Shown here in pieces: positions 28,342 to 62,871 of a DNA stretch of 64,000 nt. Every line of letters begins with the position of its first letter. Within the stretch, counting starts at the first letter, position 1. Location of the stretch: NCBI GenBank assembly GCA_964016885.1, contig OZ024747.1, positions 13,826,001 to 13,890,000 of the forward strand, written 5' to 3'. Position numbers and translations under genes: made by a program. The notes under the pieces were generated by a model that saw only the letters and a program-made list of their open reading frames with translations, was not told where the DNA came from and did no database searches. This DNA is from Eledone cirrhosa (Eukaryota).

Positions 28342-28528
28342 TGGATTGGCAGTATCGGTAGAGGGTCGGACGGCATGCTTTCCAGCATAGTTACGTCCCT
28401 TTACGATCTGAGTTCAAATCCCGCCGAGGTTGACTTTGCCTTTCATCCTTACGGGGTCGATAAAATAAAGTACCAGTAATGCACTGGGTAATTGCTGGCC
28501 TTGTGCCTAAAGTAGAAACAATTATTAT
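28342..28528 (+). mobile_element. SINE family A copy
   Basis: Highly similar to 26086-26280, in (ATT)n context. Confidence 0.88.
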
Positions 28529-32569: not shown

Positions 32570-32606
<37 letters not shown>

Positions 32607-37708: not shown

Positions 37709-38739
37709 ATGATAGAAAGTTTGGCTTTCATAAAACAAAGTGGCTTATTCTAAAAGATACTTGTTTAAATTAATATCTTCCAACATGATTCGAAATAAGA
37801 ACCATGTGTTAAATTACTTAGCAATGAAATAATAATTTTAATATTGAAATAGTGTGTTTCATTAGGAATATGGTCATGAAAGGGGTAACCCTTTTAATAC
37901 CAAACTGCCCAAGGTTCTATAATACAAAGATGTTTGTTTAAATCTCTGAAACCTTTCCATCATAGTTTTATTCAGGAATCTTAAGTTATGTTTCAAACAC
38001 CAGCTTAACAATGAGGAAGTTAGTTATATTACTTGATTATTTGATTATTTGAATTATTGATTATATATATCCTTGATTATTTGAAACCTATGGACAGTGT
38101 CTGTCATCAGAAATTTGGTAAAAAAAGAGTTAAACTTCCAATACTTTCAGAGGAAGAAGTTACTCTTACACCTTCATCATTTCCCCTACTTTATAATTCT
38201 GAAGATTTTATGCTTAAAAAAACTCATTGGCAGTTTAATTTTATTCTTTGGCAAGTCTTACTACTTTCTTTATCTTTATTTTCTCCCTTGCACCACCAAC
38301 TCCATTTGCCAGCTTTTGTTGTTTTTCCAACCAATTTACAATTCATTTATTTGCTAATTATCTTTACAGCTGAAATCTCTCTGAGTCATGACTCAATTTA
38401 ACTATATGAGAGCAACATCTGGTACATATTGCTTTACAGTTTTGCCCCCTAATCTGTTTCTTACCTTTTACAGAAGTTGTGTTTGACAAATATAATTAAA
38501 ACATATTTATTATTCTTTTTACTAGTTTAAATGTCTGCTTTCCATCTGTATGCCAGTAGACACATACATAGACTTGACAGTTAGTAAGATAGATTGATAA
38601 ATGTTATGAAGATGCATGGCCTAATGGGTTCTATTCTTGGACTGAGCAGTGTGTTTGTCCTTGAGTCAGGTGCTTAATTTCATGCTGCTCTAGTCCACTC
38701 AGCTGAGGGAAAAAAATGAGTACCAATTATTTCATGATA

Positions 38740-38910
38740 AAAAAAAACATCCGAGAAACCTCCTAGGAGATGCCAGCTAAACCTACATAGGTGTGGACTG
38801 TAACATGATAGGACCAGGTCTCCTATCATTAAAACACCCAAGAAACTGCCTATAAGATGTAACCATGTAGGAGGCCAGCTAAACCTACATAGGTGTGAAA
38901 CTATAACAAC
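38740..38910. repeat. Unclassified dispersed repeat (GATAGGAC...CATTAAAACACC...GGCCAGCTAAACCTACATAGG), locally duplicated
   Basis: Similar segments at about 4215-4370, 11340-11420 (reverse), 21706-21785, 32105-32200 and 57027-57125. Confidence 0.6.
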
Positions 38911-41900
38911 ATAGACTGATAAACTAACTGTTACTCAGCATGACTATCAAGTGCCATCTTCAAATAATATACTTTTTAATTAAACTGTTTCTTTTAACTC
39001 TTAACATCCTGTAATGATTTAATATGAAATATCTAAAAAGGAGTTTAATTCAAATGTGTATAGAATCTTTACCAGTGAACAGATCACCATGAAAATTTGC
39101 ATTATTAAGGTTAAAAATAAAGTACCAGTAATGTACTGGGTAATTGCTGGCCTTGTGCCAAAAGTAGAAACAATTGTTAAGGTTAAGACTTTTGTGGCCG
39201 TATTTCTAAAGAGAAACACCATTTCAATTAATAAGGAATTTTAAGGGATTAGCTAAAACTATTTCATTCCTAGTATAAGAATAAGAGCCTAGATATGGCT
39301 CTTATATAAAGTTATGCTAGTTGATATTAATTCAAATAAGAACCCTTTAAAATGTGTGGTTTTGTTTCATAGAACCATAGGCAACTTTGGGTGGGTTGGT
39401 AATTTTAGTATCATGCCATTATAGTGCTGTTTTTTACCTTTCAAAATGTCTGGCTAATGTGGTATCATGTGGTACAGGACGTTGACTTGATTTTGTTTTT
39501 GTACCTGCTTGTATTAGTCTTCATTGTACTGGGGGGTGGGAGAGCATCCTCCACAGTCCTTCTGTTATCTATCTTGAAGAATCTGACACATTACTGGGTT
39601 TACAATTTGGTGGTGGTAATGGGTGTGTCTTTTTCTTGACTTTTATCCTTCTGTCTGGGTAATGAAATGTAATTCTTCCCTGCCCTTGCTAGCAGGAAAA
39701 AGGATGTTAAATGATGATGATGAATTATAGCATGAGTTATATTAACCCTTCTGTTACCATATTTCCAATGAAAGTTTGTGATTTTAATTTGGAAATTAAG
39801 AATTTGGAAGGGTTTTGTAATAGGACTAACTTTCTCATTATTTATTTGGTGTTTGGAGCATAACTTAACGAAAGCTCTGACATTAAATTATGATATATAT
39901 ATTTTAAAACAAACAGCTTTATATTGTAACACCGGAGGTTGTTTGGCATCAAAAGGGCTTGTCTGCAAAAGGAAGGTTTGGCATCTAGCTTTAAAAGTAC
40001 TTTCACTAAATAATTCATATGTAGTTTTGAAAAGGTTAACCTACATTTGTTTATATGAAAATGAAGAAGAAAACAGGATGGGGATGTAAAATAGTTTTTG
40101 TTAGTTTAGCATTGTCTATGTGTATTTTACAGTCAAATTTTCAGTATCTGACACTTTTAATAAATTAAAAATGAAATAAGGGAAACAATGTCCCTGGTTC
40201 GATAATACAAAGCTGTTTATACTTGTATTAAAATCTTCCATCATATTTTAATATGGTACCCCAGCATGGCTTCAGCAAGTCAGCTGGGACAGCTAAAAGA
40301 GTAAGTAATGCTCCATGCATAATCATATTTCTAATGAAAGACATTGCCTATAATTTTGAAAACAATCAAGAATCTGGAGAGACTTAGCAATATAGCTGTT
40401 GTTTGGAACATACCTTAACAAAGGTTCTTACACAAAATTATGCTAAAAGATTTTTAGATAACTTTACACACTTTGCATGGTAAAATGTTGGTTGGTTTCT
40501 GGCAGTTTGGTATCGAAAGGATTAATAATGATAAAGTTATATTACAAAATTTCTTCAAATTCCTAATTATTTTAAAAATTAACTAAACAGAGTATTTCAT
40601 TAGAAATATGGAAATGGAAAGGTTAACCTGTTAACTCATGCGAAAACTGTCCTAATTCTATGATGACAGATCTCTTATTTTAAATTATTCATATTTAAAT
40701 AAAAAGTAATGTTATGAAAGACTATTTTTATTCAGCTGTGTACTAAATTCCAGCTTAATAATGTGGATAGTTATTTTACTAATTATTTCTAATTGTTGGT
40801 TATTTCTAAAATTAACTGAAACATATAGATGGTGTATTTCGTTAGAAATATTTTAATGATATGGTTAAACATTAGTTTACAATGCTGCATATTGTTCGTT
40901 TTTCTGTCTACACAATCACCACTATCATCCTCAAAACCTCCATAAACTGCCATCATCATCAATATTACTATCATCACCACCAGTAGTAGTAGTATGTGGT
41001 GCTCTGCAGTTAAACTCAAAATACTATTAACCTCTTCTTTTTCTTCCTTGGTAAATTTAACATCACAGTACTTTTCACTGCTGATTTCTTTTCATTTATT
41101 TTATATATATAATATCACTTTATAGTCATTTGACTTTCTAGAAATAGCAGCTAAATTGTCTTTAAATCATACCCTACTTTCAAAATAGACACATTAGGTA
41201 ATGTAGTCCTAGAAGCATTGAAAAAAAAATATATATGTTACCCATAGCTGGAATGTTTTTGAACATTGAACTGAAGTTAAACAACAGCAATGTATGTATA
41301 ATGTAAAATATATTTTTATTGTGCTGAAACTTCGCTACTCTCAATGGTTATGAATACATTTTGATTTATTTTAAGTAGATACGAGGTTCCAAGCCTATGG
41401 GAATTTGTAAATGTGTTTGATACATACTTTTCCTTAGGAGGCATTAACCATATTGGTTCCAAGCCACCTGATACTGCTCTTGCTCCTACAATAATTAGTT
41501 GCTTATTTCCTGTGTATCTATCTAAAGACCTACAAAGGTTCTTGAAAAAATTACATTAAAATGTAAATAAAAAAACAGAAATAGCTTACTCACTGTCAGA
41601 AACATGCCACTGACCAAGTAATATGGAAAAGGAAGGAACTCTCAGAAATCTTTAAAAACATGCTAGCTCTGGTTCTGTGATACAAAACTTTGTTTGAAAG
41701 TGTCTATATTTATCTAAAATTTTCAATCATAATTATGTAAGAATCTTTTTTTTAAATTGTTTCAAACATCAGATTAATGATGAAAAAGTCAGTTATATTA
41801 TTAAATCCCTCAAAATTATCATTTTCAAAATGATTTGAAAATCCTAACCAACGTCTTAGCGTAGAAATATGGCAATGAAAGGAATAGAAATAACTTGGAC

Positions 41901-42127
41901 TTAAAACAAAGTAGCAGGACTTGTCTACATCATCATCATCATACGTCCGCTTTTCCCTGCTTGCAAGGGTGGGACGGGAACTGATTCTGGCTTGATTTCT
42001 ACAGCTGGATGCCCTTCCTAACACCAACCTCATTTACAGTGAGTGCTGGGTGCTTTTTTTCCATGGCGCCTACACGTCCACTTTACAGTGGAATGATAGG
42101 GACCCCAGTCCCTATCATCTCATTTCT

Positions 42128-42257
42128 ATAGCTGAGTAAACTGGAGCAATGTGAAATAAAGTGTCTTGCTCAAGGAAACAACACATGACCGGTCTGAGAA
42201 TTGAATTCACAACCTTTCGATTGCAAGGCCAATGCTCTAACCACTAAGCCATGTGCC
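42128..42257 (-). mobile_element. CORE-type tRNA-derived SINE (family B), representative copy
   Basis: Minus strand GGCTTAGTGGTTAGAGC head and CCTTGAGCAAGACACTTTATTTCAC core. Relatives at about 11740, 32010, 38610, 46470, 49497 and 56908. Confidence 0.7.
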
Positions 42258-43635
42258 TCTACATAGAAACATATTTCATACTCTGTCTATATTCAAAATT
42301 ACATACAGGTTAAGTGATTATTAAAACCTACTTAATGAAGGCTAAGAACTAGAAGAATGTCCTTGATAATTTTTTTAAAAAATCCACTGAATTTCTTCTG
42401 CAACATGAAACAACTATATAAATGGTGTGACTATACTGACATTTTCACTGACATTTTCAATCTAAGATTGCTGTTACTCTTATTTCCTGCCTACACATAG
42501 CTGGGCATTATTCTGTTATTTCTTCTTAATCATTTTAACCCTTTCATTATCATATTTTTAGTAAGATGAATTATTACTAAGCTAAGAGAGAAAGTTTTTA
42601 GGTAAACATTAACACTTTAAAATAAACAATTTAGTATTGTAGAACCAGAGGCAGTTTAGTATCATAAAAGATAGACAAGTTTAGTATTTAAAGATAATAT
42701 TATCAAGTTTGGTATTTAAAGATAGACAAGAGTAATATTTCTGACCAGATAACATGAATTGATTCCACAGTGTTTGAGGAATATAACAAACTGTACAATG
42801 GAGGAAGATAGACTATATTCTACCACATGTGCAGAATCATTTTTTTTATTTATTTTTCTTTAAGATATTCATTGTTATTATTAATTAATGTAATTGATAG
42901 CTAGATTTATATTTAACTTTAGTTTTTAATTACCCTATATACTCACATATAAGTTGCACAGTCATTTTATATACAACATTCTCAACTCGGTACATGATTC
43001 ACATATAAGTTTTTGCTGGCTTTAAAATTGTTTTTATGAAAAAAAGTTGACACAATAAATTTTTGTTTCTGAAAATCTTGATCAATCTACAGAGAAATGC
43101 ATAAATTATCTAAATGAATGTATGTGTTTGTGTATGCATTTTTATGCAGCTTCAGTTAAATCCTGTACAGTTTGTGTACACACATGAATTTATAGTATAC
43201 TCCAGTCATTTAATGCACAATTTAATATATATGTCCCACCCTTACAAGCAGGGAAAAGCAGACGTAAAATGATGATGATGATGATGATTTTATATAACTT
43301 TGATACACATGCATTAATTTGGCCTTATGATGGGGTTATTATAGATTGAAATCTACCATTTTTAGTTCTGTTTTGTTGCCTCTTTCCTTTCACTCCTCTT
43401 TCTGTCTTTTTCCATTCTCTGCATTTACCATAAACAAACTTCGATTACATGAAGTTGTCCAAGCAATTTGTAGTAAAAAATGTCCTCTAACTTCTAAAGA
43501 TAAGCGAGAGATAACTCCAATAAGATAAGTTGCATGAAATTTGAACTAGATATAGATTTTTTGGCACATCTCAACTAATGGTAGAAGACTTGTTATATAT
43601 ATATATAGATATATGTATTTTCTTTTATTAAACAG

Positions 43636-43674
43636 GTAAAAAATCTCTTGGTAGAGTTGGATCCTGTCTTAGAG
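43636..43674 (+). CDS. WDR47: Candidate 39-nt cassette microexon of WDR47
   Basis: TTTTCTTTTATTAAACAG|GT AAA AAA TCT CTT GGT AGA GTT GGA TCC TGT CTT AGA G|GTAACT. Phase 1 to 1, no stop. Confidence 0.45.
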
Positions 43675-43721
43675 GTAACTGATAGAATAACAATATAAAC
43701 TGTTGTGGCATATTGTCAGGC

Positions 43722-44250
43722 TTATTATTATTATTATTATTATTATTATTGTTCTTTGAGTCTCAGTCATTGATGTTAGTTAACTGGAAAGTTTGTTGAA
43801 ATGAATATCAAGCCACTACCTGCAGCCTCAGATATTCAGGACGTATCGGAGGGTTCTTGCTGTTCCCAGCAAGCATGCCTTTTGAAGCATTCCAAAAAGC
43901 GTGAAGGGGCCAATTTTCTTTAACCATCCCTGGAAACTTTTTGAGATAGTACCTAGTGCGCCTATGACAATCGGGACCACTTTGACATCATGGCAGTTCC
44001 AAATCCTTTTTACCTCCCACTTTAAGTCCTGGTATCGGTTAATTTTCTCCCTCTCCTTCTCTTGCACTCTCGTGTCGAATGGGCAGGCCACATCCACAAT
44101 CAGGCACAATCTTTTTTCTTTGTCCAAAACCACCAGGTCAGGTCTATTGTGTTCCAGTTTCTTGTCCGTCTGTATCCTAAAATCCCACAGCACCTTCAAC
44201 TGATCGTTTTCTATCACCGACTCTGGCTTATGCTCATACCACTTCTCATT
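43722..44250 (-). mobile_element. 5'-truncated R4/Dong-clade non-LTR retrotransposon (restriction-like endonuclease domain, 3' UTR and (TAA)n)
   Basis: KWYEHKPESVIEN...LWDFRIQTDKKLEHNRPDLVVLD...IVDVACP...KINRYQDL...VVPIVIGALG is a PD-(D/E)xK RLE domain. Ends in a TAA microsatellite at 43722-43750. Confidence 0.9.
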
Positions 44251-45442
44251 ATATGTAATGGTGTTGCAGTTTGATTGATAAGAATATTCGAGAAGTTAAT
44301 CTAGTTAATATAGGCTTTGAATTGGCAGTCATTAAAGTGCCTGATTAAATGCCCCTGTCTTTGTTTCGGCTCTCTGCATTCCGAGTTCAAATCCAAGGTC
44401 AACTTTGATTTTCACCTTTTTGGGTTGATAAAGCAAATACCAATCCAGCAGCAGTGGGTTGATGGTGTTGTTAAATAGTCAGACAGGAGGCTTTACAGTA
44501 TGGCTCTGTGCATTCTGAGTTCAAATCCTGCCTCTTCCTGCCAGGAGTTGCAGTCAGCAGATACTATCAGCAATGAAATGACCAATGGAAATATAGTTTC
44601 CTTGGTTCAATCTGATTATCAGTTCTTTTCTTATGAGTTAATTTGAACATCCAACAAAAGTGATTGCTTTCATTGTTGTTGTCAATATTGTTGTCGTCGT
44701 TGTCAATATTGTTGTCGTCGTTTTCATTGTTGTTGTTGTTGTTTAGTGCCAAATCAAGTCTGAGTGAGCAGACTTGACCAAAGGCATTTTCATTGTGACC
44801 ATCCCATCATGTTTTAAGACATTGTGTATCTAGGACTATATCATTTAATACGCCCTGTGAGGATTTTATAGGGAGATTCGGCTTCTATTTTTAGCAGGTC
44901 AAGTGACCATGTCATAGTACCAGCTGTTGCTGTTAGTAGTTAATAAATTGATTGATTATTTTTTAAATTATTTGAAAATTATAGGCAGCATCTCATTAGA
45001 AATATAATAATGAAAGGGTTAAGAGCCACTTGAGATACGCTCCAGAGTTGCATATAGCTCTAGAGCCACAGGTTCCCCACCCTTGTCTTTCAGTACATTT
45101 ATCACATCATTCATGTCATTTGACTGATGAAACTAGTGTTTTTATTAGATTCTGAGCCATACTTGATTACTAATTTGTTCAACACGTTGCTGTTCTCATT
45201 CTCACAGCTGCCTGTTTCTGTTTTTTTCTGTTAATGTTTGTCTTGTGTGTTGTCTGTATTAATTGGTGATAATATTCTTGTTAAGCAGCTCTGGTCAACT
45301 TTATGTGTTGCAAAAGAGGCTAATTGAATAATTAGGAAATCTAAGCTATCAGTTGAATGAACCTCTTTGCTATGTTACACTTCAGTTTTATCTATAACAG
45401 TCTACATTTCCTATTCAATCGTTGATTATTCATACATGTATA

Positions 45443-45890
45443 CTAGTTGACCAGTGCTGTCAATAATGATGGCAATAGTATCACATATTTTATTTTTGGA
45501 GTCCAGAATTGGTATGCCATATATACTAGGATTATTGGATATATGAACTAACATACAAACTGGAAAATTTGAGTTTTGATAGATTAATGATTTGCATAAG
45601 AGAAACTCTATAGTGTATGTTGATAAATGATATGTGGAAGTGATTAATGATAAAAATGATATTATAATAATTCATTTCTAAGATATAATTGCATAAATGT
45701 AATGTATGTTCAAATGACATGCAGGATTAAATGTATGAGTAACTTTGGAGAAATAACTATTTGCAGACCCAAATGTAGAGTTCAAAGCAAAGACCTTGTG
45801 ATTGGAAAGCGAACTTCTTTTTGTAGCAACATGACTGATGTAGGAAATGTATTGTCTGTGTGTATACGAAAATTTTAAAGAGTTATACAA
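45443..45890 (-). mobile_element. Non-autonomous Helitron, second copy
   Basis: Clear similarity to 19124-19619. Plus strand A-CTAG-TTGACCAGT-GCTGTCA-ATAA-TGATGGC places a hairpin 9 nt from the CTAG end. Confidence 0.7.
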
Positions 45891-47243
45891 ACATATCATC
45901 ATCATCGTTTAACGTCTATCTTCCACGCTAGCATGGGTTTAGACGGGAATAGTCCCACTTGAGGTAAGATTAGTTGGGTGATCATGTCTCACTCGTATAG
46001 GACTGTCTGGCAGGTTTTCTATGGCTGGATGCCCTTCCTAACACCAATCACATTTACAGTGTGGACTGGAAGGTTTTTTATTATGTTTGGTGATATTTTG
46101 CTGTCTAGCTAAGTTGTTGTTACAGCTCACATATGTTGCATTTCATAGGAGGAGTCTTAGGTGTTTTAATCAAACTTCCTCTGGTTCTACAATACATGAC
46201 TGTTTGTTCTAAGTAGTTTATATTTATCTAAAAACGTTCCATCATACTTTTATGTAAGATCCTTTGTTCCAAACATCAGCTTAATAATTAGTAAGTTAGT
46301 GTAATTCTAAATTCCTCTGAATTTTTTATTATTTGAAAAAAAAATATTTCAAAATCATGGGCAGTGAATTTTATTAGAAATATTGTAATACAAAAAGTTA
46401 ATGATAGGGGCCTTAGTTGTTGCTAGTACTAATTTTTTCTTCAGCTTAGCTGACTGGAATGGTATAGAATACAGCATATTGTTCAAGAGAACACAATACA
46501 CCTTCTAGTCCAGGAATTGAACCCATGGCCATATTATGGTTGTGAGTTCAACTCATTGATTAACCACCAAGTCACATATTCTCTGTGTATTAGATAAAAT
46601 AAGTAGTAATAATATACAGTGAATTTTATTATTTTATGGCTCCAGGTCAGCCCTGATTGGGTAGACTTAAGTAGAAAGGGGTTCTAGTTGTAACCACATA
46701 ATTATTTTATGTGTTGGTAGTGGTGTGGTTGTGTTCAGGCAGAGTATATCATACAATATGTTCTTCCTTTCATTTTTATGTTGGTAGTGTGAGATTTGGC
46801 TGCTATTTCCGGCAGGTCAAGCAACTATTGACTCAATGTACATTGATGGATTCATTTTGCAGCCAATGGAAAACAGATGAAAGGAAGAAATATAATCAGT
46901 GTTGGCACTAGATACCACAAAGCAAGCAACAAGCTTAGTACACTATAATTTACACTGAATTCTCTTCCTGGTATTCTAATACAACGTAATGGAATGGGAA
47001 TAGGTTTCTTTTGATTTGGTCAGAAGATTAATCTTTCTAGATTTCCACCATTAATAATAGTAATGTATATAATTGTTTCTACTTTAGGCACAAGGCCAGC
47101 AAATTAGCCAGTTCATTACTGGTACTTTATTTTATCGACCCCATAAGGATGAAAGGCGAAGTCAACCTCGGTATATAATGATGATGAGTATAATCATAGT
47201 GATTATTTCATATACATATATATATCTATATATGTACATATAT

Positions 47244-47283
<40 letters not shown>

Positions 47284-47299
47284 TTATATGTACATATAT

Positions 47300-47985
47300 A
47301 CATCATCATCATTGTTTAATGTCTATCTTCCACGCTAGCATCGGTTAGACGGGAGTTGTCCCACTTGAGGCAAGGTTGGTCCGGTGACTGTGTCTTCCTC
47401 ATATAGGACTATCTAGCAGGTTTTCTATGGCTGGATGCCCTTCCTAACACCAACCACATTTACAGTGTGGAACTGGGAACTTTTTCCCGTGTTACCTACA
47501 CGGCCACATTACAGCGTGGACTGTGTGTTTTTTTTTTTTGTCATGACACCTACACAATCTTGATCTCGATCTCATTTATACATATATATCTATATGTATA
47601 TATATGTACATATATATAATACATATATATGTACATCATCATCATCATCATCGTTTAACGTCCATCTTCCACGCTAGCATGGGTTTGGATGGGAGTTTTC
47701 CCACTTGAGGCAAGATTGGTTGTGCTGCTCGTATAGGACTGTCTGGCGGGTTTTCTACGGCTGGATGCCCTTCCTAACACCAACCACATTTACAGTGTGT
47801 ACTGGGAGGTTTTTACCGTGTTACCTACACGGCCAGATTACAGCGTGGACTGTGTGTTTTTTGTCGTGACACCTACATGTCTGGCAGGTTGTCTACGGCT
47901 GGGTGCCCACGGCTGGGTGCCCTTCCCAACACCAACCACGTTTACAGTGTGTACTGGGAGGTTTTTACCGTGTTACCTACACCAT
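47300..47985 (-). mobile_element. Cluster of (GAT)n-tailed retroposon (SINE-like family C) copies with an internal duplication
   Basis: Repeated CATCATCGTTTAACGTC...GCATGGGTT...GGCTGGATGCCCTTCCTAACACCAACCAC. Relatives at about 1670, 9000, 41928 and 45895. Confidence 0.75.
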
Positions 47986-50900
47986 CCTTATATTTTCATG
48001 CTTGCATGGGCTGGTCCAATCTTCTCCAGCACAATGTTCTAAGATCAACTATGTATGTATGAGTGTGACAGATGGTCTTCTACAACTTCTGTCTACCGAA
48101 TTTCCGTCATATGACATTGGTCAACCTGGGGTTATAATAGAAGACACTTCGTGAGAATTTCAAAAGCACACCATCTAAACATAATGTGTTGATTACCTGC
48201 ATTGGTTTATAAACTGGTTTGGATTTTTGCCTATTTCTCAGACATAAAATAGGCGGGGGTGGGGATTATATTCGAGTATATATGGTGTATGTAGTTCAGT
48301 TGTATTTTTTAATCATCTGATAATATTTTTTCATCTGTAATGATAGTCATATAATTTTTAAAGTATCTACATTTTGTAATGTTATGTATCTGTTCATTAT
48401 TCTGCTGAATATAAAATCAGTATGTGTGTGTGCAGACACGTTTGTATCTTGCATACTTTGGTAATAGAAATGTTAATTGCTGGCTGTGACTGTTAATAGT
48501 GTTGTTTTGTTTCTACATATATATGGGATGAACCTCATTAAAACTGTCCTAAATTTGACTCTGAATTCTCAGACATTGAGCAGTAACAAAATTGTCATTA
48601 TGGTAGCTAATATCCCTCCTTTATTAGTTAGGACAATTTTACAAGAGTATCAACGTTTTGGTACCCGTTATTGGTCATCTATTTCTTCTGAATATGTCTT
48701 TGAAAGGGATATAGCTCAATAGGCAGGTTTGTCCAATATACTACAAGAAGTTTCTGTCATCAGCTATGCTCCGCCCTATGATCCAAATAATATGAAGGAC
48801 TTGCGATGTAAGTCAGTGAAACTAGTTGGAATAGTTTTTATGTTAACCCTTTTGATACCAAATTGCCTGAAATCACCCCTGGTTCTATGATACAAACATT
48901 TATAAAATGTTTATATTTATCTAAAAACCTTCCGTCATAATTTTATGTAAGAGCCTTATGTTTTGCTCTAAACACCAGCTGTGTATTTGAAAATTATAGA
49001 CAGTGTATTTTATTAGAAATAAATATGGTAATGAAATTGTTAAAATTTGGTGTCTCACTTTTCAGAATTGAAACCATGTTGTTTCTGTATCAATGTCCCT
49101 CCCACACACAAACTTAACTCTTGTTTACTATATTGATGTCCTTTTTTCATCTACTCACCAGTAATTTTCTAGATATTACTATAATTGAAGAGTTGATAGG
49201 AAACCCTAGAGGAAGAGAGGATATTTTCAGTTTGTCAAAAGCCTACATGGTATGGTTCTCTGACAGCATTTCAATTGATTTATTTTGACTGTTCTAAAAG
49301 TGTCCCCATCCCAATTACTTCTCCATTCTGTCCCTCATCCTTTAAACAAATGTTTTTTCAAAGCTTAGATCTGACAGGAAGTATAATATAGGCATCTGTA
49401 ATTACAGGGTTTGTTTTATGTAGAGGTTTAAAGACAGAAGTTGTCATCAGTAAGGTCACAGCATTTGTTTTAATTGCTACTAATTGTTAAATCTGTGAAG
49501 GCATGCTGCTTAGTGGTTAGGGTTTTCATGATTTTGCTTCCCTGTGAAGCATTATACTCTTCAGCAAAACACTTTATTTCACATTGCTCTGATTCGCTCA
49601 GCTGGAAACAATGAATTGTACTTGTGATTCAAGGGACCAGAATTATGTTATGAGCATGCTCTTCTGTTGATTAAACAACTGAGGCATTGATCAAAACTGA
49701 TGGGGGGTGTCCAACATGTGTTCAACTTCTTATTAAGCTTAATGTTTGGAACATAACTTTACAAAGGTTCTTACATAAAGTTATGACAGAAGGTTTTTAG
49801 ATAAATATAAACACTTTAGTATTGTAGAACTAGGTCCAGTTTCAGGCAGTTTCATATCAAAAACATTAATCAAAAGTTGAAATATAAATTAAATATTTAA
49901 AAAAGGGATTTATGACTTATCTCCACATTTCCTCTTTTTTTATTCCCCTTATCTTGTATGGAGTTTTCTTTTTACTGGAAATGCAAAAATGTATCTGTGG
50001 CACCCCACAGCGCTATGGCTCAGTGGTTGAAAGCATCTGTTTGTAAAGTGATGATGTTGGAATAGGTCTTTGACTGCTGTTCTTTGGTTGTGTGTGTAAA
50101 GAACATTAAATTCTTCATATTTCTTCAAATTCTCATAACAACAAGGTGACCTGTTTGGCATCACTCTTTATCCATCTGTTCACTTGCACTGTTCCACATG
50201 CTGCTATTTGTTTTTCCCAAAGTGTTAGGAATAAATCTGGGGCAAGTGGAAAAACCAAGAGCTATTGTAATAAACATGATGGCCTAAATAAAATATAGAT
50301 TCTATCATGTCTTTTAGAATTCTATTTTCGAAGTCTATTTCAGAATCATAGTTATTCTTTTCTGGCATAGGCCAGTAGTTTTTTGTTTTTTTGTTTGTTA
50401 TATAACTACCATTGTATAGATCAGCACAAACCCAAATATTGATACTGTGCACCCTAGCTTTAAATGGAATATACTGTTTTCAATTCTATGTGATTCTTAT
50501 AACCAAGCATAACATCAATGTAACATTTTTGTTACCATATATGTAAGGAAACCTATTACTTATGTGTTTATTTTGGAGAATAACATAATGTGTTTTTATA
50601 CAAAATTATGTTGGAATGTTTTTAGATAAATAGAAACACTTTAAAACAAACAGTTTTGTATTGGAGAACCAGGGGAGAAAAAGGGTTAAATGTTCAAAAC
50701 ATTCTCTAGAAAATTTTAAATCCAAGCTGAATATCTAGGAAAATAGGTCCATGACTTAATATAGTTATTATGCTAGAAATACAATTTACAGGATTGACAA
50801 AAAGATAGGAGAAATGTTTAAAAAAAAGTGGTGGGGTGGCTATGAAGTTAGGACAAACTCCTGCCACTTAGCTGGATGGTTTATTTTATTATGATGGTAC

Positions 50901-53354
50901 TAAGCTTATTATTACCATCATGGTCATACATTCTGGAAAGGCTACAATTTCTTTTTCAATGGTTTCATATAATTTTCTATTGGGGAGATGTTCCACACCT
51001 CTACAGACATAACTCTGTATAAATATATTGGAGAACACTATCTATTTCTGTCTTATCTCTAATTTTTGTATGTATTGGCATTGGTCCTGAAAACTGTTCG
51101 TTAATTCTGTCAGGGCGTCTATAAATTCATGTGTTTACATATAAATTTCTTCTATTTTCAATTATATTTTCACTGCTACTGAAATCAAACAGTAATGCCT
51201 ACCATCTACAGTGAAATTAAAACATTTCTCTCAGATATTGTCTATATCTTGGAAGATAAAACTTTGATTTTTATCTTTGGGACAAGTTTTTTGTGTAAAG
51301 TTTGAAAAATAAAAAAATATTGTACATCTTTCATTTTGAATCGTTTTGGACTGTCTTCGGTCATGTATGCTTATGGAATGTCTTTTAGGAGTAGGATACT
51401 ATTAAGTGGATGGGCAGTGCCAGATATAGACTTGGTGAGGCCCCAGATTATATAAAACTTTGAGACCCTTTGTTAAAAAATATTATACCTGGAAGTCACA
51501 CAAAAATTGAAAACTTTGATTTTGATGCCTTTTAATTATTTTGAAGTCCTATGCTGTAATTTGTTTAGCTTATGTCTAAATCTGTATCTAAGGATATTTG
51601 AATAGGAGTAACTGAAAATAAACTTAGTCCAACCAGAAATACAAAGTATCTAAATTTACTCATCGATCCAACCCATGCTGTTCTAAAACAGTAGCTGTAA
51701 TAATGTTTTAATGCTGTATTTACAAATACAATTCGTTATGATACAACATCCTGACTTTCATTTCCTCTTCCGTCATCTTTAGTCATGTCAGTCTTGGTCT
51801 TCCTCTTCCTCTTTTCCTATTTATTTCCATCACACCTCTTACTCAGTCCTTTCATCCTTCCTCAACACATGACCCAGCTACCTCATCACATTCCTCTTTA
51901 CAGCATTCATCACTAGCTCTATTTCTATCAACCTTTGTAATACATTCTATGTCTTCTTATTCACTGAACCATCCTCGACAATAGACAACATTGTATGATG
52001 GATGTTATACAATACAACAGTGCATGGATGTTTATATAAGTACATTTGTGTTGTAACATAGTGAGATAGGATGAGATTTGGTTCAATGCCTCTATGGAAT
52101 TTATGAAATTTATATTAACAGATATAACATAGATAGTAGAGGATTTAACCAAAGCTGAAATAAGATGTGTACATGTTTATATATATATAAGTATGTTTAT
52201 CTACATACATATTTCTCACAGATACAGTTAAATCCTGTACTGTTTGTGTGTTACATAAGCATATCACATCAATGGAAGTACTGATAAGAGTTTCATTAGC
52301 TTGTGATTTTGTGTTCTAATACTGCAAAGAGTATAAACTCAGAAGAGGTGCTGGGCTTTACCTGGTTGATGCTTCATAGATACTTTAGATCAGGGTCAGG
52401 GGCCCTTTTCAAGCTGAAGAACCATTTTTAGCTTATAAATTAATTAATAAATAGTAATTTTGACTATGATTATCAGAACTGCACGATTTATTAAAAATAA
52501 AAATCCTCACTAGAAAACATGAACTTTTTTCCTAATCAATGCAATTTGGTGGGGAGCTTTGAATCTTATCTTTCTGACAAGCTTCTTCACAGTTTCTGTG
52601 TTCCCTATTTCACTCACAACCCTATTGCAAAAACACTTGCTCAAGATGCCACAAAATGGGATTGAAACCAGAGCCCCATGATTGCAAAGAAATCTTGTTA
52701 ACCAGTTAGTTATGGTTATATCTACAATAGCTTTTACTCAGACATACTAGCAGCTGTGAATTGAGAAATGTTTAAGACCTTTTAAAATTTCTTTAGTTAC
52801 TATTTTCTATATTTCTGCTTGTCTAGTCGTATTTATATTGTAAATAATCAATGGTAAAATCTTAAGATATATGTTATATATTTATTGGACTTTGTTACAC
52901 CAGATAGCAGCTGGCTAGTAATTGTGATGATGTTAGTGGTGTCAGTAGTTTTCAGGTGAAATCAAAATCAATAGTTCATTTCTTGGTACAGATCAAAAGT
53001 CATATATTATTGAACTCTTCAGTTGAACCTTTTCGATACCAAACTGTCTGAAACTGTCCTGGATTTATTATACAAAACTGCCTGTTTTTAAATGTTTATC
53101 CTTATATTAAATCCTTTCATTATAACATTATTTTAGACATGTTTGTCAAGTAATTTTCTAAATATCAGCTTATGTAAAACTTAGTTATTTTATTAAATTC
53201 CTCCAAATGTTTGGTTATTTTCAAAATTAACTGAAACCTATAGGCAGTGTATTTCATTAGAAATATGTTAATTAAATGAAATACTGTGTAATTAATTAGA
53301 AACATGGTTATGAATGGGTTAACATTTTTCATTGATACTGTATTTATTTATTAA

Positions 53355-53390
53355 TTTAATGACTTTTTGTTTGTTTGTTTCAGGTAAGTT
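53355..53390 (+). promoter_or_regulatory. Candidate recursive splice site (ratchet point) in the WDR47 long intron
   Basis: TTTAATGACTTTTTGTTTGTTTGTTTCAG|GTAAGTT: a full 3' splice site directly abutting a consensus GTAAGT, junction 53383/53384. Confidence 0.6.
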
Positions 53391-55269
53391 AAATCTTGTG
53401 GTACATCAGTACCCTATAACAGAGAAGTTGACATTTCAGCAGCAGCAGCTACCTGTATGTTATAAACTCTTAACTTTACAATGGTAGGTGCTTATTTTTT
53501 AATATCTTTTTAACTTATTTTTGCTAAGTTAATTGTAGTTGAAAGCTGTGTAAAACTGTAGGTGTACACATACACACACAAATGGAGGAACAATATAATA
53601 GTATTCTGGTAATGTTTGAGTTTCAAAAGCTCCTAGTGGAAGTAAGCTGCAGAAGAGAAAGATCAAGGCAGACTTGGGGGCAGAAGTGGTGAGGACTGAT
53701 CTCACAGAGATGACAACAAAGTGTGGTAGGGCGAACTGTGCTGGAGGTAACCCATCAACCGATGCAAGCCTGGAAAAGTTGTCCTATGATGATAATTATG
53801 ATGAATCTATTCTATTGAGATCTCTTATTTGGATCAATCAATAAATCAATCCATGAAATAGCTTTAGATTTAGCTTACATTTTGATTTTCTTTTCTTTTT
53901 ATCTATATTGTCTTGTCTAATCCATTTTTGTTTATCATAACTTTTTTTTTTACCTGTTGTTTTGTATATTTTTGCCTAAGCAGTGCTTGATAAATAACTA
54001 TTTACCAGTTATTAATGAGGGATTCTTTTAAAAAATGTTGGTGATTGTTTAATTTCTTGAGAAGATGGCTGTATTTGTTAAACATATAATGGGAAAAGAA
54101 ATATTGATTGGATGACAAATTATTTTAGTTCAGTTTTGGTTGGTAACAAAACATGTTTCAAAAATGAATTCCCTCAAAATGTTTAACTTTTTTTAAAATG
54201 ATTTGAAAATTATAGGCAGTATTTTTCAAGAAATATGGTAACAAAAGGGTTAAACTTGTGGTATTGATTTCACATACTTGCACACATTACTGATTCCTCA
54301 ATTAACAAATTTGATCTTGAAAGAATATACTGTGAACTGTATTTACAGTTTGCACAAGTAACTGAACCACAGGCATAAACATGTTAATAATACCAACAAA
54401 TTCGAGATATGCTCTGCTCATTAAAGGGGATTTGTTGTTAAGTAAATTGTAACTTGAAACTTCCCATGGAAATAAATATAGCAAAATATATAAAAAATCT
54501 TGTAATAGAAAGCAGTTATTATCTTAACCTTTTGATACTGACACACACAAAACTGCCTCTGGTTTTATGATGCACAGATATTCATTTTAAAATGTTCATA
54601 TTTAAATTAAAACTTTTCAACATAATTTTATTTAAGACATTTTTTTTATTATGTAATGTTTCAAACAATTACTTATATAAAGGTTATTTATCTCATTGAA
54701 TTCTTCAAAATTTCAAAATTAATTTATATACAAGGCAGTGTATTTCTTAGAAGTAACAAATGGGTTATAGACTTAAGTGTTTCTCAGATTGGTGCGGTGT
54801 CATTAAATATATCTATGACAGGAAACAGGATTTGGACTCGGAAGGCACAGAACTGGAACAGATATTGCAAAATATCTCATCTGGCTTTTTAACAATTCTG
54901 TCTGTCCATAGTCCCTGGACTGACTGGTACTTTATTTATTGACCTCAAAAGGATGAAAGGCAAAATTGACCATGGATGTGTTTGAACTCAGAGTACAGAA
55001 AACCAGAACAAATCTGAGGCATTTAATCTGATGCTCATGGCCTGCTGAGAAAATAATATCTCTATATTTTGGGATATTATCTTGATCCTGTTTGTGCTGT
55101 TCATACAGTTAGACTGTTGGTCAATCAGATAGATAAATAACAGCAGTTAACCCTTTCGATACCAACCTTCCCCATGCCATGCATTTTAAAGGGTTTCTAT
55201 TTCAATTAAAATCTTCCAAACATAATTTTACTTTTGTTAAGTTATGTTACAAATATCATCATAATAATG

Positions 55270-55408
55270 GTTTCTTATATAGGCACAAGGCCACCAATTT
55301 GGGGGAAGGGGGAAAGTCGATTAAATCGGCACCAGTCCGTGACTGGTACTTTATTTCATTAACCCCGTAAGGATGAAAGGCAAAGTTAACCTCGGCGGGA
55401 TTTGAACT
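55270..55408 (-). mobile_element. 5'-truncated SINE A with 20-bp TSD, nested in a MITE
   Basis: CAAATATCATCATAATAATG at 55250-55269 and 55409-55428. Confidence 0.88.
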
Positions 55409-55925
55409 CAAATATCATCATAATAATGAAATAATTAAAAACTTTAGTAAATCCCTCTAAATTCTTCAATAATTAATTCAAATATAATGTATCTTATTAA
55501 AAACACAGCAACAAAAGTTAATACTGTTATTGTTAAACAGTATAACAGTTACCCAATAGAATAAATATCCACTTCAGTTTTAAATTTAGAAAGAAAAACT
55601 TGATCTATAAACATAGCCTGGCTTAACATTAACCTTTTTGTTACCATATCTCTAATGAAAAATACTGATTTTCAAATCATTTTCAAACTAACTGCTTGTA
55701 TTTGCTTTAATTCCTTTACTACTGTTTACAGATGACTAACTCTAATCTATCTTTGCTTTCTATTTTATTTCATGGTTTGTCCTATATGCCTTCTTCTGTT
55801 ATACACCTTCACAGAGACACATTCCCTTTGTGTAATTAATTGATTATGTATTCATTCACTCTACTCACTTCTGATATTGAGGTTAATGGGCTGAATGAAC
55901 AATCTCTTTGCTAACTGCATGATCC

Positions 55926-56167
55926 TTAACCCTTTCAATATCAACCTGCATGTAACTGCCCATTATGATGTGATACAAAACCACCCATTTTAAAGTGTTT
56001 GTCTTTATATTAAAACATTCCATCATAATTTTATGTAAGAACCTTTTGTTAGGTAATGTTCTAAACATTAACTTGATCATGAAAACATTAGTTATTTATT
56101 TTGATCATTTTCAAAATGATCTGAAATGCAGTGTCTTACATTGGAAATATGGTACTGAAAGGGTTAA
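55926..56167. mobile_element. piggyBac-like MITE family 1, representative copy
   Basis: TTAA-CCCTTTCAATATC ... GGTACTGAAAGGG-TTAA, i.e. TTAA TSD with CCC-starting TIRs. Dozens of diverged copies in both orientations, e.g. about 2610, 16818, 19870, 21090, 23985, 37886, 39742, 48843, 53026 and 58400. Confidence 0.8.
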
Positions 56168-59100
56168 ATCAAATTATGTTTGAGAGCAAATAGGTTTTAT
56201 GTCCTTGCTAGAAGGTTACCTTAATGATATTCAACATTTCCATCCTATTTCAAGGCTGTAATACAGTGATGTGATAGTATGTACATTTAGAAGATCATCT
56301 CATCTATAAAAATAACTGCTTCAACAGTATGCAAAACTGCTTCAAATTTGCAAATAAGCAATCCCATGGGAAAATGAGTGAAAAACAGTAACCCCGAAAA
56401 AAAAAAACCAACGACAATTCCTTCTACTTACAGGCTTTCCTCTATCTCTCCCTCTTCCTCCCACTCTAATCCATTTTCTCATGACCCACTGACTAGCTTA
56501 TTTTAAGGAGAGAGCAGTCATGTTGTAGTATTCCCATCTGCAAGCTTACTCCTCTTTTTTTTTACAGATCTACAGCTGTGTTACCATTATTACAAGACAT
56601 GTGATTTTTGTTATAGCCATTATTAGCAAATTTTGCTGGGTTGGCATCTCTTAATAAATACATGAACAACAACAATTATAATTCTTGTAGGCTTTGAAGT
56701 TGTTTTCTTTGCTATGTCTATCTTCTCATTTTCTTAACTTGTTCTTACAATCTTACACTTGTTACTATAACTCTCCCTCTGGATATAATAAATGTAAGAT
56801 TTGTGATTAAAGTAAAAAATTGTTTAGAATATGTCTTCAGATTTCCTTAACTTTCTTTATCTTACAAATCTTGCTGTTATTGTATCCAGCAATCTTTTTA
56901 CTAGTGAAAGCACAGAACCTAGTGGTTAAGGTGTTTACTTATGATCAAAAGGTAATAAATTTAATTCCTGAACTGGTTGGTGCATTATTTTCTTGAGCAA
57001 GACACTTCATTTTATGTTACCTTTCATGATAGGACTGGGGGGCCCTATCATTAAATCACCCTAGAAACCTCATGAGATGCAACCTTATAGGGTGCCAGCT
57101 AAACCTACATATGTGTGAGCTGTAAAATAATTTTTCCTATAGAGCCTTCTTTTATTCTTTTACTATTTTCAGTTATTAGACTGTGGCCATGGTGGGGCTC
57201 TACTTTAAAAGGATTTTAGTCAATAATATTGACCCTAGTACTTATTTTTAAAAAATCTGATACTTATTTTATCAAACTCTTTTTGTTGAAGCACTAAGTT
57301 ACTGAACACAGACACAAATAAATAAGTTAACAGAAGTAGCAAATAAAAATACCAAATAGAGAGACTATTAAATGCTTTTACCCCTTCCCTTCTGTCTCCC
57401 TACCTGCTTTCACACACTTCTCATCAAGCCCTTCTCTGCATTCTCTTTATCTAGTTGTAAAGTAAATTTGAAGCCAATTTAAAATACAAGAATTGATGCA
57501 ATATGCTGTATTTAAGAAGTGAGCATTAACAGTCTGAATAAACACACATGCATATTTCTGTATTTTCCCAAACATATACATTCATAGATCTTCAAGCTTC
57601 TTTAACATGCATTCATATATATGCATACACATATACATACAGTCATATGTACACACATTCACATGCAGTTTTAATACTTTTTTGGCACATATACTCATGT
57701 TTTGACATTCTCCCAAACATATATACATACATAGGCATACAATACTCGTTTTACACATGCACACATACATAAGCAGTCATATGCATATATGCAGCTCTAG
57801 TACTTCTTTTATGCATACACATATACACATATACATATATACATATTATCATCACATGCATTTTTATATACACACACATCCAATTCTAATACTTGTTTTC
57901 ACACACATATGCACACACTAATAAATTGTTCTATATCATGAAAACATTTACTGTAATTGCTTTACACATACACACAGACACAAATTGTTCCATATTATGA
58001 AAACAACTACTGTTAATAACATATTTATGTGCATTAACTGTATAATCTTGCTATGAAATAATAGGGGAGTGTCATTCTGCAGCAAAACTTTAAATGGTTT
58101 AAATGTATAAATATGTTATTAACATTAAAAATGCTTTAATCGTATGGAACTGTTGGGTAATTATGATGTATATCACCATCTAGTTTTTCATACAGTTGTA
58201 TAAAAACATTGTCACTTTTACATGTTTGCTCATACACACACAGTCTCCCATACTCACATGTGCATGTGTGTAAGCCCATGCTCACAAACATAAGCACACT
58301 ACTCTCTCTTCCGTCCCACCTCCACACATACACATATACTCTGGAAGCTTGAGGCCTGTCTTGTTAGCTCTATCTTTTTATTGTTAATATAAGCTGTAAA
58401 TTTTTTCAGTACCGAACCGCCTAAGACTGCCAATGATTCTATGATATAAAATCTCTCATTTTGCATTGTCTATATTTATCTAAAAATCTTCCTTCATAAG
58501 TTTATGTAAGAACCTTTGTTAAGCTATATTCCAAACACTAGTTTAATAATGAGAAAATTAGATATTTTGTTAAATCCATCTAAATTCTTTGTTATTTTGA
58601 AAATCATTTGAAACACGTGAGTGTCTTTCATTAGAAATATGGTGATGAAAGGGTAAAAACCATTATTTTTCATTACAGCTCTGTAATCATCTAACCATCT
58701 CTTGTGAACCTCAAACATGAGCACATGCAAGCAACCCACACACATAAACACACTTACCTACTCTTACATACACATACACTCATCACAGAGACTTGAATAT
58801 AAATGTACACATCCTTACTTGAACAGCTACACATGCAAAAATATACATATACCTAAAACATTTTTGACATCCTAAAGAATTTCTTTCATCCAAGTAAGAA
58901 AGACCCAGAAAAAAACCCAAAACAAAACAAATGTAAAAAATATTTTTGGGGGTTTCTGTGGGTGACGTAAAAAGGTAAAAGAAAAAGATAATTACAAAGA
59001 ATTATAAACTGTCAACAATTCTTTAAACAGCCTCCACCCCCTGTCGACACTCCCTCTTTTCATTTTTTTAGATATTACTATTATTATTGTTGTTTTTCGT

Positions 59101-61858
59101 CTAAGACTTTTGAGGTTTTCATTTCCTTTATTAGTTTGTTTGGTTGTTCTTTTACTGTTATTAACAGCAGCTTCTCTTTGAGTTCTGTTGAAGTTTTACC
59201 TTCTATTCTTTTACTTTATATCACTACAACCATCTCCCCCTTCATTGCAATAACTTTCTGAATCCAATTTGCACAGCCATTATACCATATCCAGCATTTT
59301 CCACATGCAGTATTACCACACTTTGTCATCATATACACCTATTACTGCATGTCTCTCACATACCCCACAAAATATGCATAGCCAAAGTACCATTGATTCT
59401 TTTCCCTTTTGCAAGAAAGAAAAAATTATTTTCTTCCTCTAGTGTATGTATTTTAGTTTTTTCATTAGTTGGCTAGCGATGCACCATTTTCTCATCTTAT
59501 TATTTCTAAAAAGCAAAAGTTGTGTCTGTGTATGTATGTATATGTGAGTGTGTGTTTTGTTATATGGGTATATATTCAGACATGTTAAATATGTTTATGA
59601 GTATACATGACTAGGACTATTAATTGCCTTAACTAAAACTCAAACAAGTCTACACCAAACCCATGCTGTTCATGAACTGTGAAATCATGTACATTGTGCA
59701 AATATTAAATGCATCCAAATTCTTGATTAGTTTTCAAAATTATTTGAAAATCATGGGTAATGTTTTTCAATAGAAATATGGTAAGGAAATGATTAAATCT
59801 ATTCAAGTAGAGTTGACCAGACTCATCTATCAGAGCAAAAATGAAAAGATTAAATGTTTCTGGTGTGAGATGTTCATAAAATATCTGATGGAAATTTGGG
59901 GATATTTTCAAAATTTATTAAAACGCAGGCTGTGTATTTCATTAGAAATACAGTACTGAAAGGGTTGAATACAATTTTTTTTATTTTTTACCTTAACTGA
60001 TTTTAGTCATTGGGCTGGTTATGTTGGGTCACATGTTTCAATGGCATAATCAGTTACTAACTGGTTTTGTTCAACCTAGGGAAAAATATCAACTACTGAC
60101 ACCAGAACTAGACTGGCACTGATTTTGTTAAAACATGGAAAAATGAAAGGCAAAGTTTTCCTAGACAGGGTTAACTCAGTATTTAAAGGGATATAACACA
60201 ATATCACAAGGCATTTTATTTGAAACCCTGATTCTGTTGTCCACTGTCCTATGTAAAAGCTACAGACCTACCGATGGTTATCAAACTACATATCTATCAC
60301 TTGCTGAGTGATCATATTACTGATTACACTAAAGTGCATCAGTCACTTTCTAATGTACCGGAAAGGTTAATGCAAGTATATTGAGATAGAAACTGTATGA
60401 AATACTATATAACCCTTTAGCATTTACATTACTCTATATATACTATTATATTGTCATGGTAAAGGCTTTAACTCATAATTATCTCACATAATATTGAATC
60501 TATGAGGTTTTGATATTATTTATTTTAAGACCAATACCGTAACATCTGTATAAGTGGTCGGTTATGGCCGGTTTGAACAGAAAGAGGTGAGAGAATTCTA
60601 GCTGCATATGGCTGGTTTAAATGCTAAAGTGATAAAGTTGAGATGATTATGCTGGGTTGGTTATTGAATGCAAATGCATAGTACCTATCTTCTCATGCTA
60701 CTAACATAAATTTTGATATATTTTAATAATCTTTATGTCTGTTTACTTACATTACTAATTCTATTGATATGGTATGTTTGCTGTAACATCTGCTATATCA
60801 AAACAGTTGCAGTGTCGTCTGCATTTCATATGTTATTAATATAGGTCAGTGAAAACAGTTGTCATCTCTTACTTTGCAATGTCTTTATATTCTGACATCC
60901 TTGGAAGAAAGTAAACATATTATTGTCAGGAATATAACAGAAACTAACCCAAATGACATGATAGTAGTGCTAATAGTAATAAGAAATATGTTACTATTCC
61001 TGTCACTAATACAAATGTGTTACTAATACTGAAACGGTGTTAGATCAGCTGTGTTATTGTATTATTAATAGTTACACTATTCTACTAATGATATCTTGTT
61101 TGTTAGTTATACTATGTTAAATTTAATCACTGTCTTTTATATACCCTGTCTCACTGATTTTATACTATTATATATATATATATATATATATGTATGTAAG
61201 TGTGTGTATATATATATATACACACTTATACTATGTTGTAACTGTTATATCAACTATGCTACTAATGTTATTGCCTTATATCTGATAGAAATAATAATAA
61301 TGATTAGTGGTGGGGGTAGTGATAATAATTTTAAGAAGAATACACATTCTGGAGAAATAAGCATTGTTTCAATATGGAATGTCTAAGCTCTCTACTCACC
61401 TTGTGTCCCCTCTTGAGGTAATTTTTTGTATTTCTTTCCACCCCTCTTTAAGTCTCTGTAAAGTACTTGTCATTTGTTCAAAAATGTCAGTGTATGATAC
61501 TTGATGACTGGGGGTGATGCTGGATGAGGTGGATGGAATGTTTGTTTCTTTACACTTAATGTCCTGTACCACATGAAACCACATTGGCAAAACATTCTTC
61601 AAAAGTACAAATGATCCCCTATGACTTAGACCACATTAAAAATTGTCTTTTTTTCTAATGCAAATTTTTCCAACAATCTCTCCTCCAAAAGACATTTGAA
61701 TCAACAAACCCATTTTTATATTTTCTCTGCTAAATCATTGCAGGATGTTAACAGTTAACTTTAAATAATTTAATTGATAATGTAACACTAATATAATTAT
61801 TAGTACTATTAAAGGTGAAGAGTTGGCAGTATTGTTAGTTTTGGGTAAAACACACACA

Positions 61859-61992
<134 letters not shown>

Positions 61993-62523
61993 CACATATA
62001 TGTGTATATATATAATATCTTTGAGGGTCTGTAAAGGCCATGGGAACTACTCCTTCCTCTAGACCTACCAGTTAAAAAAGTACAATCATACACACACATA
62101 TGTTAGTGGTCTTTCTTGACAGTTGAATATTGTCATAGTCTTCATCACAAAGATGTAATATTGTGGTGGGTCTAATGTACAGCTTGTGTGTATGTAGCAC
62201 CTTTGTATGAAGATATCTGTCTATTCTCTAGCTTGTATGTCCTTCCTAGTGTGGATCTATTTTTGTGTGTGCCTTACTATATGTGTATTGGAATTACATG
62301 TGTGTATATTTGTGTGTATGTGTGCAGCATGGGTATAAACCTATATGTAGATTATGCACCTCTCCTTGCAACTAAATTCAATTTATTTTAAGTATTTATT
62401 TATTTGATTAATTATTTATTTGCAAAACCATTTTGTTAGCTTGATTTTATTTTTAATGCACCACCATGAGCTCTTTTGTTGCCACTGCTTTTGTATGCTT
62501 ATTTTTTTCTTTCATGCTTTTAG

Positions 62524-62871
62524 ATCTGATCACAAGTACACCTATTAATGGGGAGGTGCCACACAATCCCTCCCTAAACAACACACCTGTGTTACCTAAC
62601 ACTTTGCCCAGGAGCAAGCCTGTAGGAATGGTCAAATGTGTTGACCACAATGTTACCAAAGATTCAAGTGACACTCCTGTTAAGGCTGGTGAGGCGACTA
62701 CTCCCTCTCTACAACGAAAGCACAGCTTGCATGGGGTCCCTGCAAAGTCTGTTCAAAACAAACCCCCCGCACAGAAACCTCTTAGTCCCGTCAAGGGAAT
62801 TGCTCGGAGTGCGAGCGTTCAAGGGACGCCGTCAGAAAGTAATGGTGGTGGTGTTGTGGAGAAGACCTCAG
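62524..62871 (+). CDS. WDR47: WDR47 downstream coding exon (low-complexity linker)
   Basis: Strong pyrimidine tract and TTTTAG|AT, open frame (D)LITSTPINGEVP...VVEKTS, donor CAG|GTAGGT. 348 nt, phase 1 to 1, compatible with the exon ending at 15928. Assignment to WDR47 rests on position and phase. Confidence 0.8.

Follow-up and report, generated by a model that had tools for sequence, protein, structure and literature searches.

Intronic ratchet points accompanied by cryptic RS-exons are known from kuz, Bx and other genes of Drosophila, as described in the available sections of two reports (PMC8605326, PMC6110457). The fly sites favour intron midpoints and divide the introns into segments of 9–15 kb, according to the available text of the second report (PMC6110457). 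A different arrangement is described for Ubx, where m1 and m2 are expressed RS microexons of 51 nt that are in frame (PMC8605326, in the part available). Vertebrate RS sites lie in long neuronal introns and have EJC-repressed RS-exons, as summarized in PMC8605326. At the level of sequence motifs, large introns in insects and in sea urchin were reported to be enriched for RP sites (Shepard et al. 2009, PMC2773006); the available text of that study covers 13 species with no mollusc, and the string 'mollus' occurs in it 0 times. The literature searched documents recursive splicing for flies and for a few genes of vertebrates; for sea urchin and other insects it offers evidence at the level of motifs. 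Our search, which omitted most subscription papers and supplements, found no report of recursive splicing in octopus, cephalopods or molluscs. Here we describe a site in an octopod WDR47 gene which, by the sequence tests run, likely behaves like a Drosophila ratchet point and is a candidate member of this group.

The analysed window is a stretch of 64,000 nt (G000:C7:13826001-13890000) in a genome of 3.0 Gb. Its organism is an octopod: the protein encoded by the large exon at 14380..15928 (+) matches WDR47 at 97% identity in Octopus sinensis, O. vulgaris and O. bimaculoides, and at 89% in Argonauta. It also possesses the Pfam WDR47_COR domain, and the gene name WDR47 given in the original prediction is right. 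This exon counts 1549 nt from the ATG, ends in CCAG in phase 1 and is followed by the native donor GTAAGT. The next large coding exon, at 62524..62871 (+), has 348 nt and is also in phase 1; it is itself left out of some relatives' isoforms. The stretch between the two large exons, 15929..62523 (+; 46,595 nt by the coordinates of our tblastn exon map), is a single intron when a 39-nt exon described below is skipped. The remaining WDR47 exons were placed as far as ~84,400 by tblastn against the window and 200 kb downstream, and the odd tail of protein P0131 had no good match across 264 kb (best E value 0.14). Alternatively used exons were found in a cluster at 62524-62871 and near 66391 and 74321, in window coordinates extended downstream. 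This cluster corresponds to the low-complexity linker of cephalopod WDR47, a protein with 10 or more isoform models in each Octopus species. In the isoforms of relatives, all downstream alternative WDR47 exons join in phase 1, and therefore one regenerated donor could serve all of them.

Two further features of the window should be mentioned. Head to head with WDR47 lie the exons of a translation GTPase (5075-13178, minus strand, Pfam GTP_EFTU), which we take to be probably EEFSEC, the elongation factor for selenocysteine; ~1.2 kb separate the end of its first coding exon from the WDR47 ATG. The WDR47 intron also contains a T/G-rich tandem repeat of ~3.5 kb (34222-37770), which is open in all three plus-strand frames.

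The candidate ratchet point, CAG|GTAAGT, is located at 53381..53389 (+), with an acceptor AG ending at 53383 and a donor GT starting at 53384. The acceptor reads TTTCAG|GTAAGT in the sense direction of octopod WDR47. An AG-free zone of 82 nt (53300..53381, +) contains the branch-like TTAAT/TTTAAT at 53351-53360 (TTTAAT itself at 53355-53360) and a T-rich tract at 53363-53380, which is in part a (GTTT)3 run and has three G among the 12 bases at -18..-7. The original prediction had pointed to the TTTAAT motif, the T-rich tract and the CAG|GTAAGT at 53384, and had claimed that joining the upstream exon regenerates a donor identical to the native one; both claims were confirmed in the sequence. 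Indeed, the large exon ends in CCAG|GTAAGT, and its joining to 53384 restores the same 9-mer. The regenerated donor thus reads CAG|GTAAGT when the large exon is joined and GAG|GTAAGT when the 39-nt exon is joined. The only other CAGGTAAGT on the plus strand of the window is the native donor.

Downstream of the site, a candidate cryptic RS-exon occupies 53384..53483 (+), that is, 100 nt up to ATG|GTAGGT; a shorter version of 71 nt ends at CCT|GTATGT, with 53454 as the last exon base. The strength of donors was expressed as our own simple count of matches to the consensus out of 9. By this count, the two downstream donors score 7/9 (ATG|GTAGGT) and 6/9 (CCT|GTATGT) versus 9/9 or 8/9 for the regenerated donor. 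Translation across the junctions bore out the claim that the donors at 53454 and 53483 define 71- and 100-nt exons that shift the frame; a stop occurs at or just past the junction with exon 62524. The likeness to the Drosophila ratchet points, as far as these are described in the sources available to us, thus consists of an acceptor and a donor fused in a long intron, with a donor stronger than that of the cryptic exon. The fly cryptic exon is likewise short and out of frame, with ~50 nt in those sources, whereas the WDR47 candidate has 71–100 nt. We estimate the probability that 53383|53384 is a silent recursive-splicing ratchet point with a cryptic RS-exon at roughly 0.7; that it is a selected acceptor|donor is somewhat more probable.

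The site lies 37.5 kb downstream of the large exon and 9.7 kb downstream of the 39-nt exon, with a further 9.1 kb to 62524. With the 39-nt exon included, the candidate stands at 51.5% of an 18,849-nt intron (9,709 + 9,140 nt), in a similar way to the midpoint sites and 9–15 kb segments given for Drosophila in the partly available sources. A dispersed repeat with many matches of 77–128 nt covers 53200..53327 (no strand assigned) and ends ~55 nt upstream of the candidate. The ratchet candidate as a part of this repeat was rejected: the segment 53325-53520 matches the genome once, with no second match in a search that skips simple repeats, and the dispersed repeat stops upstream. The segment 53243-54220 shows 0 differences in contigs from three DNA runs, all on one sample, which is possibly the assembly's own source; the three runs behave as genomic DNA and showed no splice joint. 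A search of sequencing runs with the intronic segment 52500-54500 listed no RNA run.

We counted exact patterns genome-wide on both strands (3.0 Gb). The pyrimidine-only pattern Y11-N-CAG|GTAAGT was found 67 times versus 70 for the three other bases at +5 together. The B12-TT-N-CAG|GTAAGT class has 75 members, including the WDR47 site, versus 17 for |GTAACT (odds ratio 4.7, p 1.6e-7). When the AG was broken in the same class, GTAAGT and GTAACT were found 81 and 86 times. Accordingly, ~59 of the 75 sites are in excess and ~16 (~21%) are expected by chance, an over-representation of the fused acceptor|donor class of about four times across the octopus genome. Reverse-read pattern controls (19 and 11) were not taken as the main controls, since true acceptors are common. 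It should be noted that the B12-TT-N class was chosen after the WDR47 site had been seen and that it is narrow. Its acceptor half misses 10 out of 10 true WDR47 acceptors, and thus the real number of sites is probably higher.

The explanation of the excess by a single repeat family was rejected by core-versus-core BLAST (odds ratio 4.5 without three duplicates). Non-perfect donors demonstrate no excess, with 40 sites for |GTAAGV versus 55 for |GTAACV (~35 after collapsing one minisatellite). The original prediction had proposed genome-wide enrichment on the sense strand of long introns as a check; an excess was seen for perfect CAG|GTAAGT (75 vs 17) but not for non-perfect donors, and the sense strand is taken from base skew. 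A minisatellite with a unit of ~54 nt at G000:C25:8622889-8624916 (+; L123) contains 21 or more copies of a tract-CAG|GTAAC word. The TAG-acceptor pattern gave 388 matches. Among the first 100 listed, 88 belong to one repeat family, so such counts can be inflated; the remaining 12 comprise 10 GTAAGT vs 2 GTAACT (by eye; p 0.04), which lends weak support. Members of this family often occur as inward-facing pairs 0.7–3.5 kb apart, for example C1:38774010(+)/38774741(-) and C1:82078024(+)/82081478(-). The dispersed repeat with the tract-TAG|GTAAGT word is possibly a terminal inverted repeat of a DNA transposon.

We further compared the 9-kb flanks of 74 other class members and 6 of the 26 pyrimidine-only sites with those of 40 acceptor controls (all 17 GTAACT sites and 23 picked from 70) and 40 of the 81 no-AG controls. 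Removal of near-duplicates (5 test and 4 control loci) left 75 test loci versus 40 and 36 controls. A GTAAG word at +20..+120 was found in 23/75 test loci vs 3/40 and 3/36 controls, with a background of 5.8% of 5025 windows. The first GTRAG donor lies at a distance of 23–133 nt, and the residues of this distance modulo 3 (11, 9 and 12 of 32) show no bias towards 3n. Upstream of the sites, YTAAY at -50..-15 is present in 39/75 test loci vs 12/40 and 4/36 controls, and the median AG-free run is 56 nt in the test set vs 31 and 34.5 nt in the controls. The oriented T>A skew is positive in 51/75 test loci vs 18/40 and 14/36 controls; as a marker of the sense strand it was calibrated on two genes only, including the WDR47 introns, and as a continuous value it did not differ significantly from the controls (p 0.06 and 0.12, before de-duplication). 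A broader donor pattern, present in 50/75 loci vs a 20% background, was drawn up once the data had been seen, and we place no weight on it. A looser scan turned up 4 extra GTAAGT sites in the acceptor-control flanks (357 kb) but none in the test flanks (684 kb) or the no-AG flanks (360 kb).

Host exons for the other genome-wide sites were found neither in the flanks nor in two 100-kb stretches at duplicated sites, and therefore the intronic, sense position of these sites rests on the skew. The top ORFs in the flanks resembled transposon proteins by eye, and locus L090, which lies within a long antisense ORF, is a chance hit. The flank features are the signature that fly ratchet points with cryptic exons would predict, in an octopus genome; the genome-wide peak of cryptic exon length in octopus is 20–60 nt, compared with ~50 nt in the partly available fly sources. 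The approach resembles that of Shepard et al. 2009 (PMC2773006) in that, as its available text describes, a motif-level excess of fused sites was taken to indicate recursive splicing in invertebrates. The control described there is the antisense strand, whereas the octopus controls are base-swap and no-AG patterns, complemented by the downstream donors.

Within this class, the WDR47 tract with its three G belongs to the less enriched stratum (at least three G in 12/75 GTAAGT vs 7/17 GTAACT sites). The site lacks a GTRAG donor at +20..+120. Its best downstream donor scores 7/9, a value reached by 10% of background windows, and a 6/9 donor like that at +71 is found in 42% of them. One alternative explanation is a chance motif: a (GTTT)n run beside an AT-rich repeat would happen to end in CAGGTAAGT and remain unused. 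The ~21% of the class that represents background, the G bases in the tract, the moderate downstream donors and the end of the repeat ~55 nt upstream all agree with such an origin. So does a looser definition of the motif, by which 4 sites in 1.4 Mb of flank on both strands correspond to ~0.07 look-alikes per intron of this size. For the narrow class, which was drawn up knowing the WDR47 site, the expectation in a 46.6-kb intron is 1.2e-4, calculated from a background of ~16 sites in 2 x 3.0 Gb. Against a chance origin, the WDR47 site is the only one among the 12 G-rich test sites to combine a branch-like motif, an AG-free run above 50 nt (82 nt) and a 7/9 donor. Tracts with 11 T in 14 nt were found at 21 test vs 0 control sites, and the candidate is in sense orientation at the midpoint of a long intron. 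A classifier based on features outside the pattern, which is weak (leave-one-out AUC 0.72), gave a score as high as that of the WDR47 site to only 1/76 controls and to 4/75 test sites. On balance, we regard a chance motif as unlikely.

The acceptor may also be used in an ordinary way, the segment being kept as a regulated poison exon (71 or 100 nt, followed by decay) or as an alternative last exon giving a WDR47 without the WD40 domain. A last exon could make use of an open frame at 53383-53484, with 34 codons to a stop at 53485, and of a poly(A) hexamer AATAAA at 53840. The WDR47 region of relatives is rich in alternative exons, and some duplicated sites elsewhere in the genome keep 89–96% identity in the exon body, unlike the cryptic fly exons, which are poorly conserved according to the available part of PMC8605326. 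On the other hand, the peptide of the segment that starts at 53384 was found in 0 of 48 cephalopod WDR47 proteins bearing the junction motif, a count to be read with the caution that protein sets would not include targets of decay. Among truncated isoforms (proteins of 283–902 aa; 2 of 678 candidates), neither carries the cryptic peptide. The regenerated donor (9 or 8 of 9) is stronger than the cryptic donors (7 and 6), and the class favours a GTAAGT start over GTAACT, for which an ordinary exon would have no reason. A retained exon of either kind thus seems improbable, at rather long odds.

Immediately upstream of the GTATGT donor, a TTTCAG and tandem CAG acceptors (+) allow possible in-frame microexons of 15, 12, 9 or 6 nt. 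The functional element could accordingly be the 15-nt microexon at 53440-53454, with the upstream motif being incidental or a helper. It would keep the frame and has a branch-like TTGAC word upstream, but its acceptor is poor (an AG-free run of only 10 nt and 7 pyrimidines in 20), and its peptide is absent from all the relatives' proteins examined. We consider this explanation very improbable.

The original prediction had used a second site, at 43635, and proposed that the 46.6-kb intron is cut in three steps. This scheme needs revising: 43635 as a bare, zero-length ratchet point was rejected, since the site opens an in-frame cassette exon of 39 nt at 43636..43674 (+), and the 46.6 kb are not one intron in the isoforms that include it. 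The exon reads GKKSLGRVGSCLR, begins with GTAAAA and has its own donor, GAG|GTAACT. A matching 12-aa insert, GKHLGRVGSCLR, was found in 14 of the 48 cephalopod WDR47 proteins with the junction motif. All 14 are isoform models of three Octopus species, and the other junction-bearing proteins are without the insert. In the three Octopus species the exon has 36 nt, one codon less than the 39 nt of the window. As the exon is part of Octopus isoform models, the ratchet candidate bisects the 18.8-kb intron behind it. In the original interpretation of 53384 as a ratchet point with an RS-exon, the acceptor|donor anatomy stands and is joined by the genome-wide excess with downstream cryptic donors, whereas the three-step scheme is to be revised.

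The 39-nt exon may represent an expressed RS-exon comparable to the Ubx microexons: it is in frame, alternatively included in the Octopus isoform models and begins with GT. The difference from Ubx is that we only infer re-splicing at 43636, and a GT start in relatives is not readable from protein. The donor regenerated at this exon (CAG|GTAAAA) and its own donor (GAG|GTAACT) both score 7/9, and plain skipping explains the isoforms equally well. Ubx, as described in the available text, and WDR47 would each combine an intronic ratchet, a candidate one in WDR47, with a short RS-exon in the same gene.

For the silent ratchet point at 53384, a mechanism may be proposed from the fly model in the available part of PMC8605326. 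The acceptor would be recognised by exon definition across the segment from 53384 to 53454 or 53483, that is, as a transient exon of 71 or 100 nt defined by the downstream donor. The upstream exon would be joined to 53384 first, removing 9.7 kb if this is the 39-nt exon or 37.5 kb if it is the large exon. The regenerated donor would then outcompete the cryptic donor and be spliced either to the exon at 62524, which lies 9.1 kb downstream, or to one of the later exons in phase 1. The frame-shifting exon would be avoided in this way, and the mRNA would keep no trace of the ratchet step. The layout with a second donor for exon definition is shared by the octopus class and the vertebrate RS-exons, as far as the latter are summarized in the source available to us.

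The genome-wide sites also occur in neighbouring and duplicated pairs. Among 101 sites, the pairs closer than 500 kb are all co-oriented (7/7, with 1.7 pairs expected), and three of them are duplicates. A 100-kb stretch of C12 (G000:C12:45275001-45375000, L199-L208) contains three co-oriented ratchet-like sites at offsets 22996, 40602 and 79588 (+). Two of these share 96% identity across 200 nt and have flanks that do not align, and a third relative is found on C1200 (L101). The third co-oriented C12 site is outside the pattern lists; the skew matches in 9 of 10 bins of the 100 kb, and no host coding exon was found in this stretch. Another pair of duplicated cassettes, whose flanks no longer align, was found in G000:C3:79000001-79100000 (L189-L198) at offsets 24087 and 76228 (-). 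Further duplicated acceptor-exon-donor cassettes with unalignable flanks are L049/L050, L041/L042 and L074/L095; the cassettes of these pairs measure ~150–550 nt.

In five duplicate families, the fifth of which (L074/L095) was seen in direct alignment only, the acceptor-exon-donor unit forms, repeats aside, the sole collinear island. The island of L103/L104 extends over -82..+71 at 89% identity, and L101/L105 differ by a 13-nt indel in the exon body. The interpretation of these islands as retained ratchet units is suggestive only: it was the motif that led to both copies, and a short local duplication could look the same. A multiplication of cassettes composed of an acceptor, a cryptic exon and a second donor (~150–550 nt) is suggested because co-oriented copies lie 52, 57 and 330 kb apart with unalignable flanks. 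As a tentative joint reading, which we think doubtful as a whole, exon-defined recursive splicing would operate genome-wide in cephalopods, ratchet cassettes would multiply as modules in growing giant introns, and WDR47 would have a Ubx-like two-tier ratchet. In the latter, the expressed 39-nt RS-exon and the silent ratchet point would both feed the cluster of alternative phase-1 exons.

Compared with the known systems, the octopus, as a mollusc, belongs to a different phylum from Drosophila. More than 500 sites are given for the fly in the partly available sources, whereas the narrow octopus pattern has an excess of ~60 in 3.0 Gb. Only nine fully suppressed sites are noted for mammals in the available text of PMC8605326; the octopus signal is larger and closer to the fly case.

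The value of these data lies mostly in the genome-wide signal, with ~100 listed sites, and the single WDR47 site is modest alone. If the reading is true, a mollusc with a ratchet and a cryptic exon would fill the lophotrochozoan gap and would speak for a mechanism inherited from the bilaterian ancestor rather than for separate origins. If it also holds genome-wide in cephalopods, exon-defined recursive splicing would be present in all three bilaterian supergroups. In octopods, with their 3-Gb genomes and very long introns, intron removal is a practical question. Since the fused signal is about four times over-represented, octopuses likely remove some of their long introns stepwise, as flies do.
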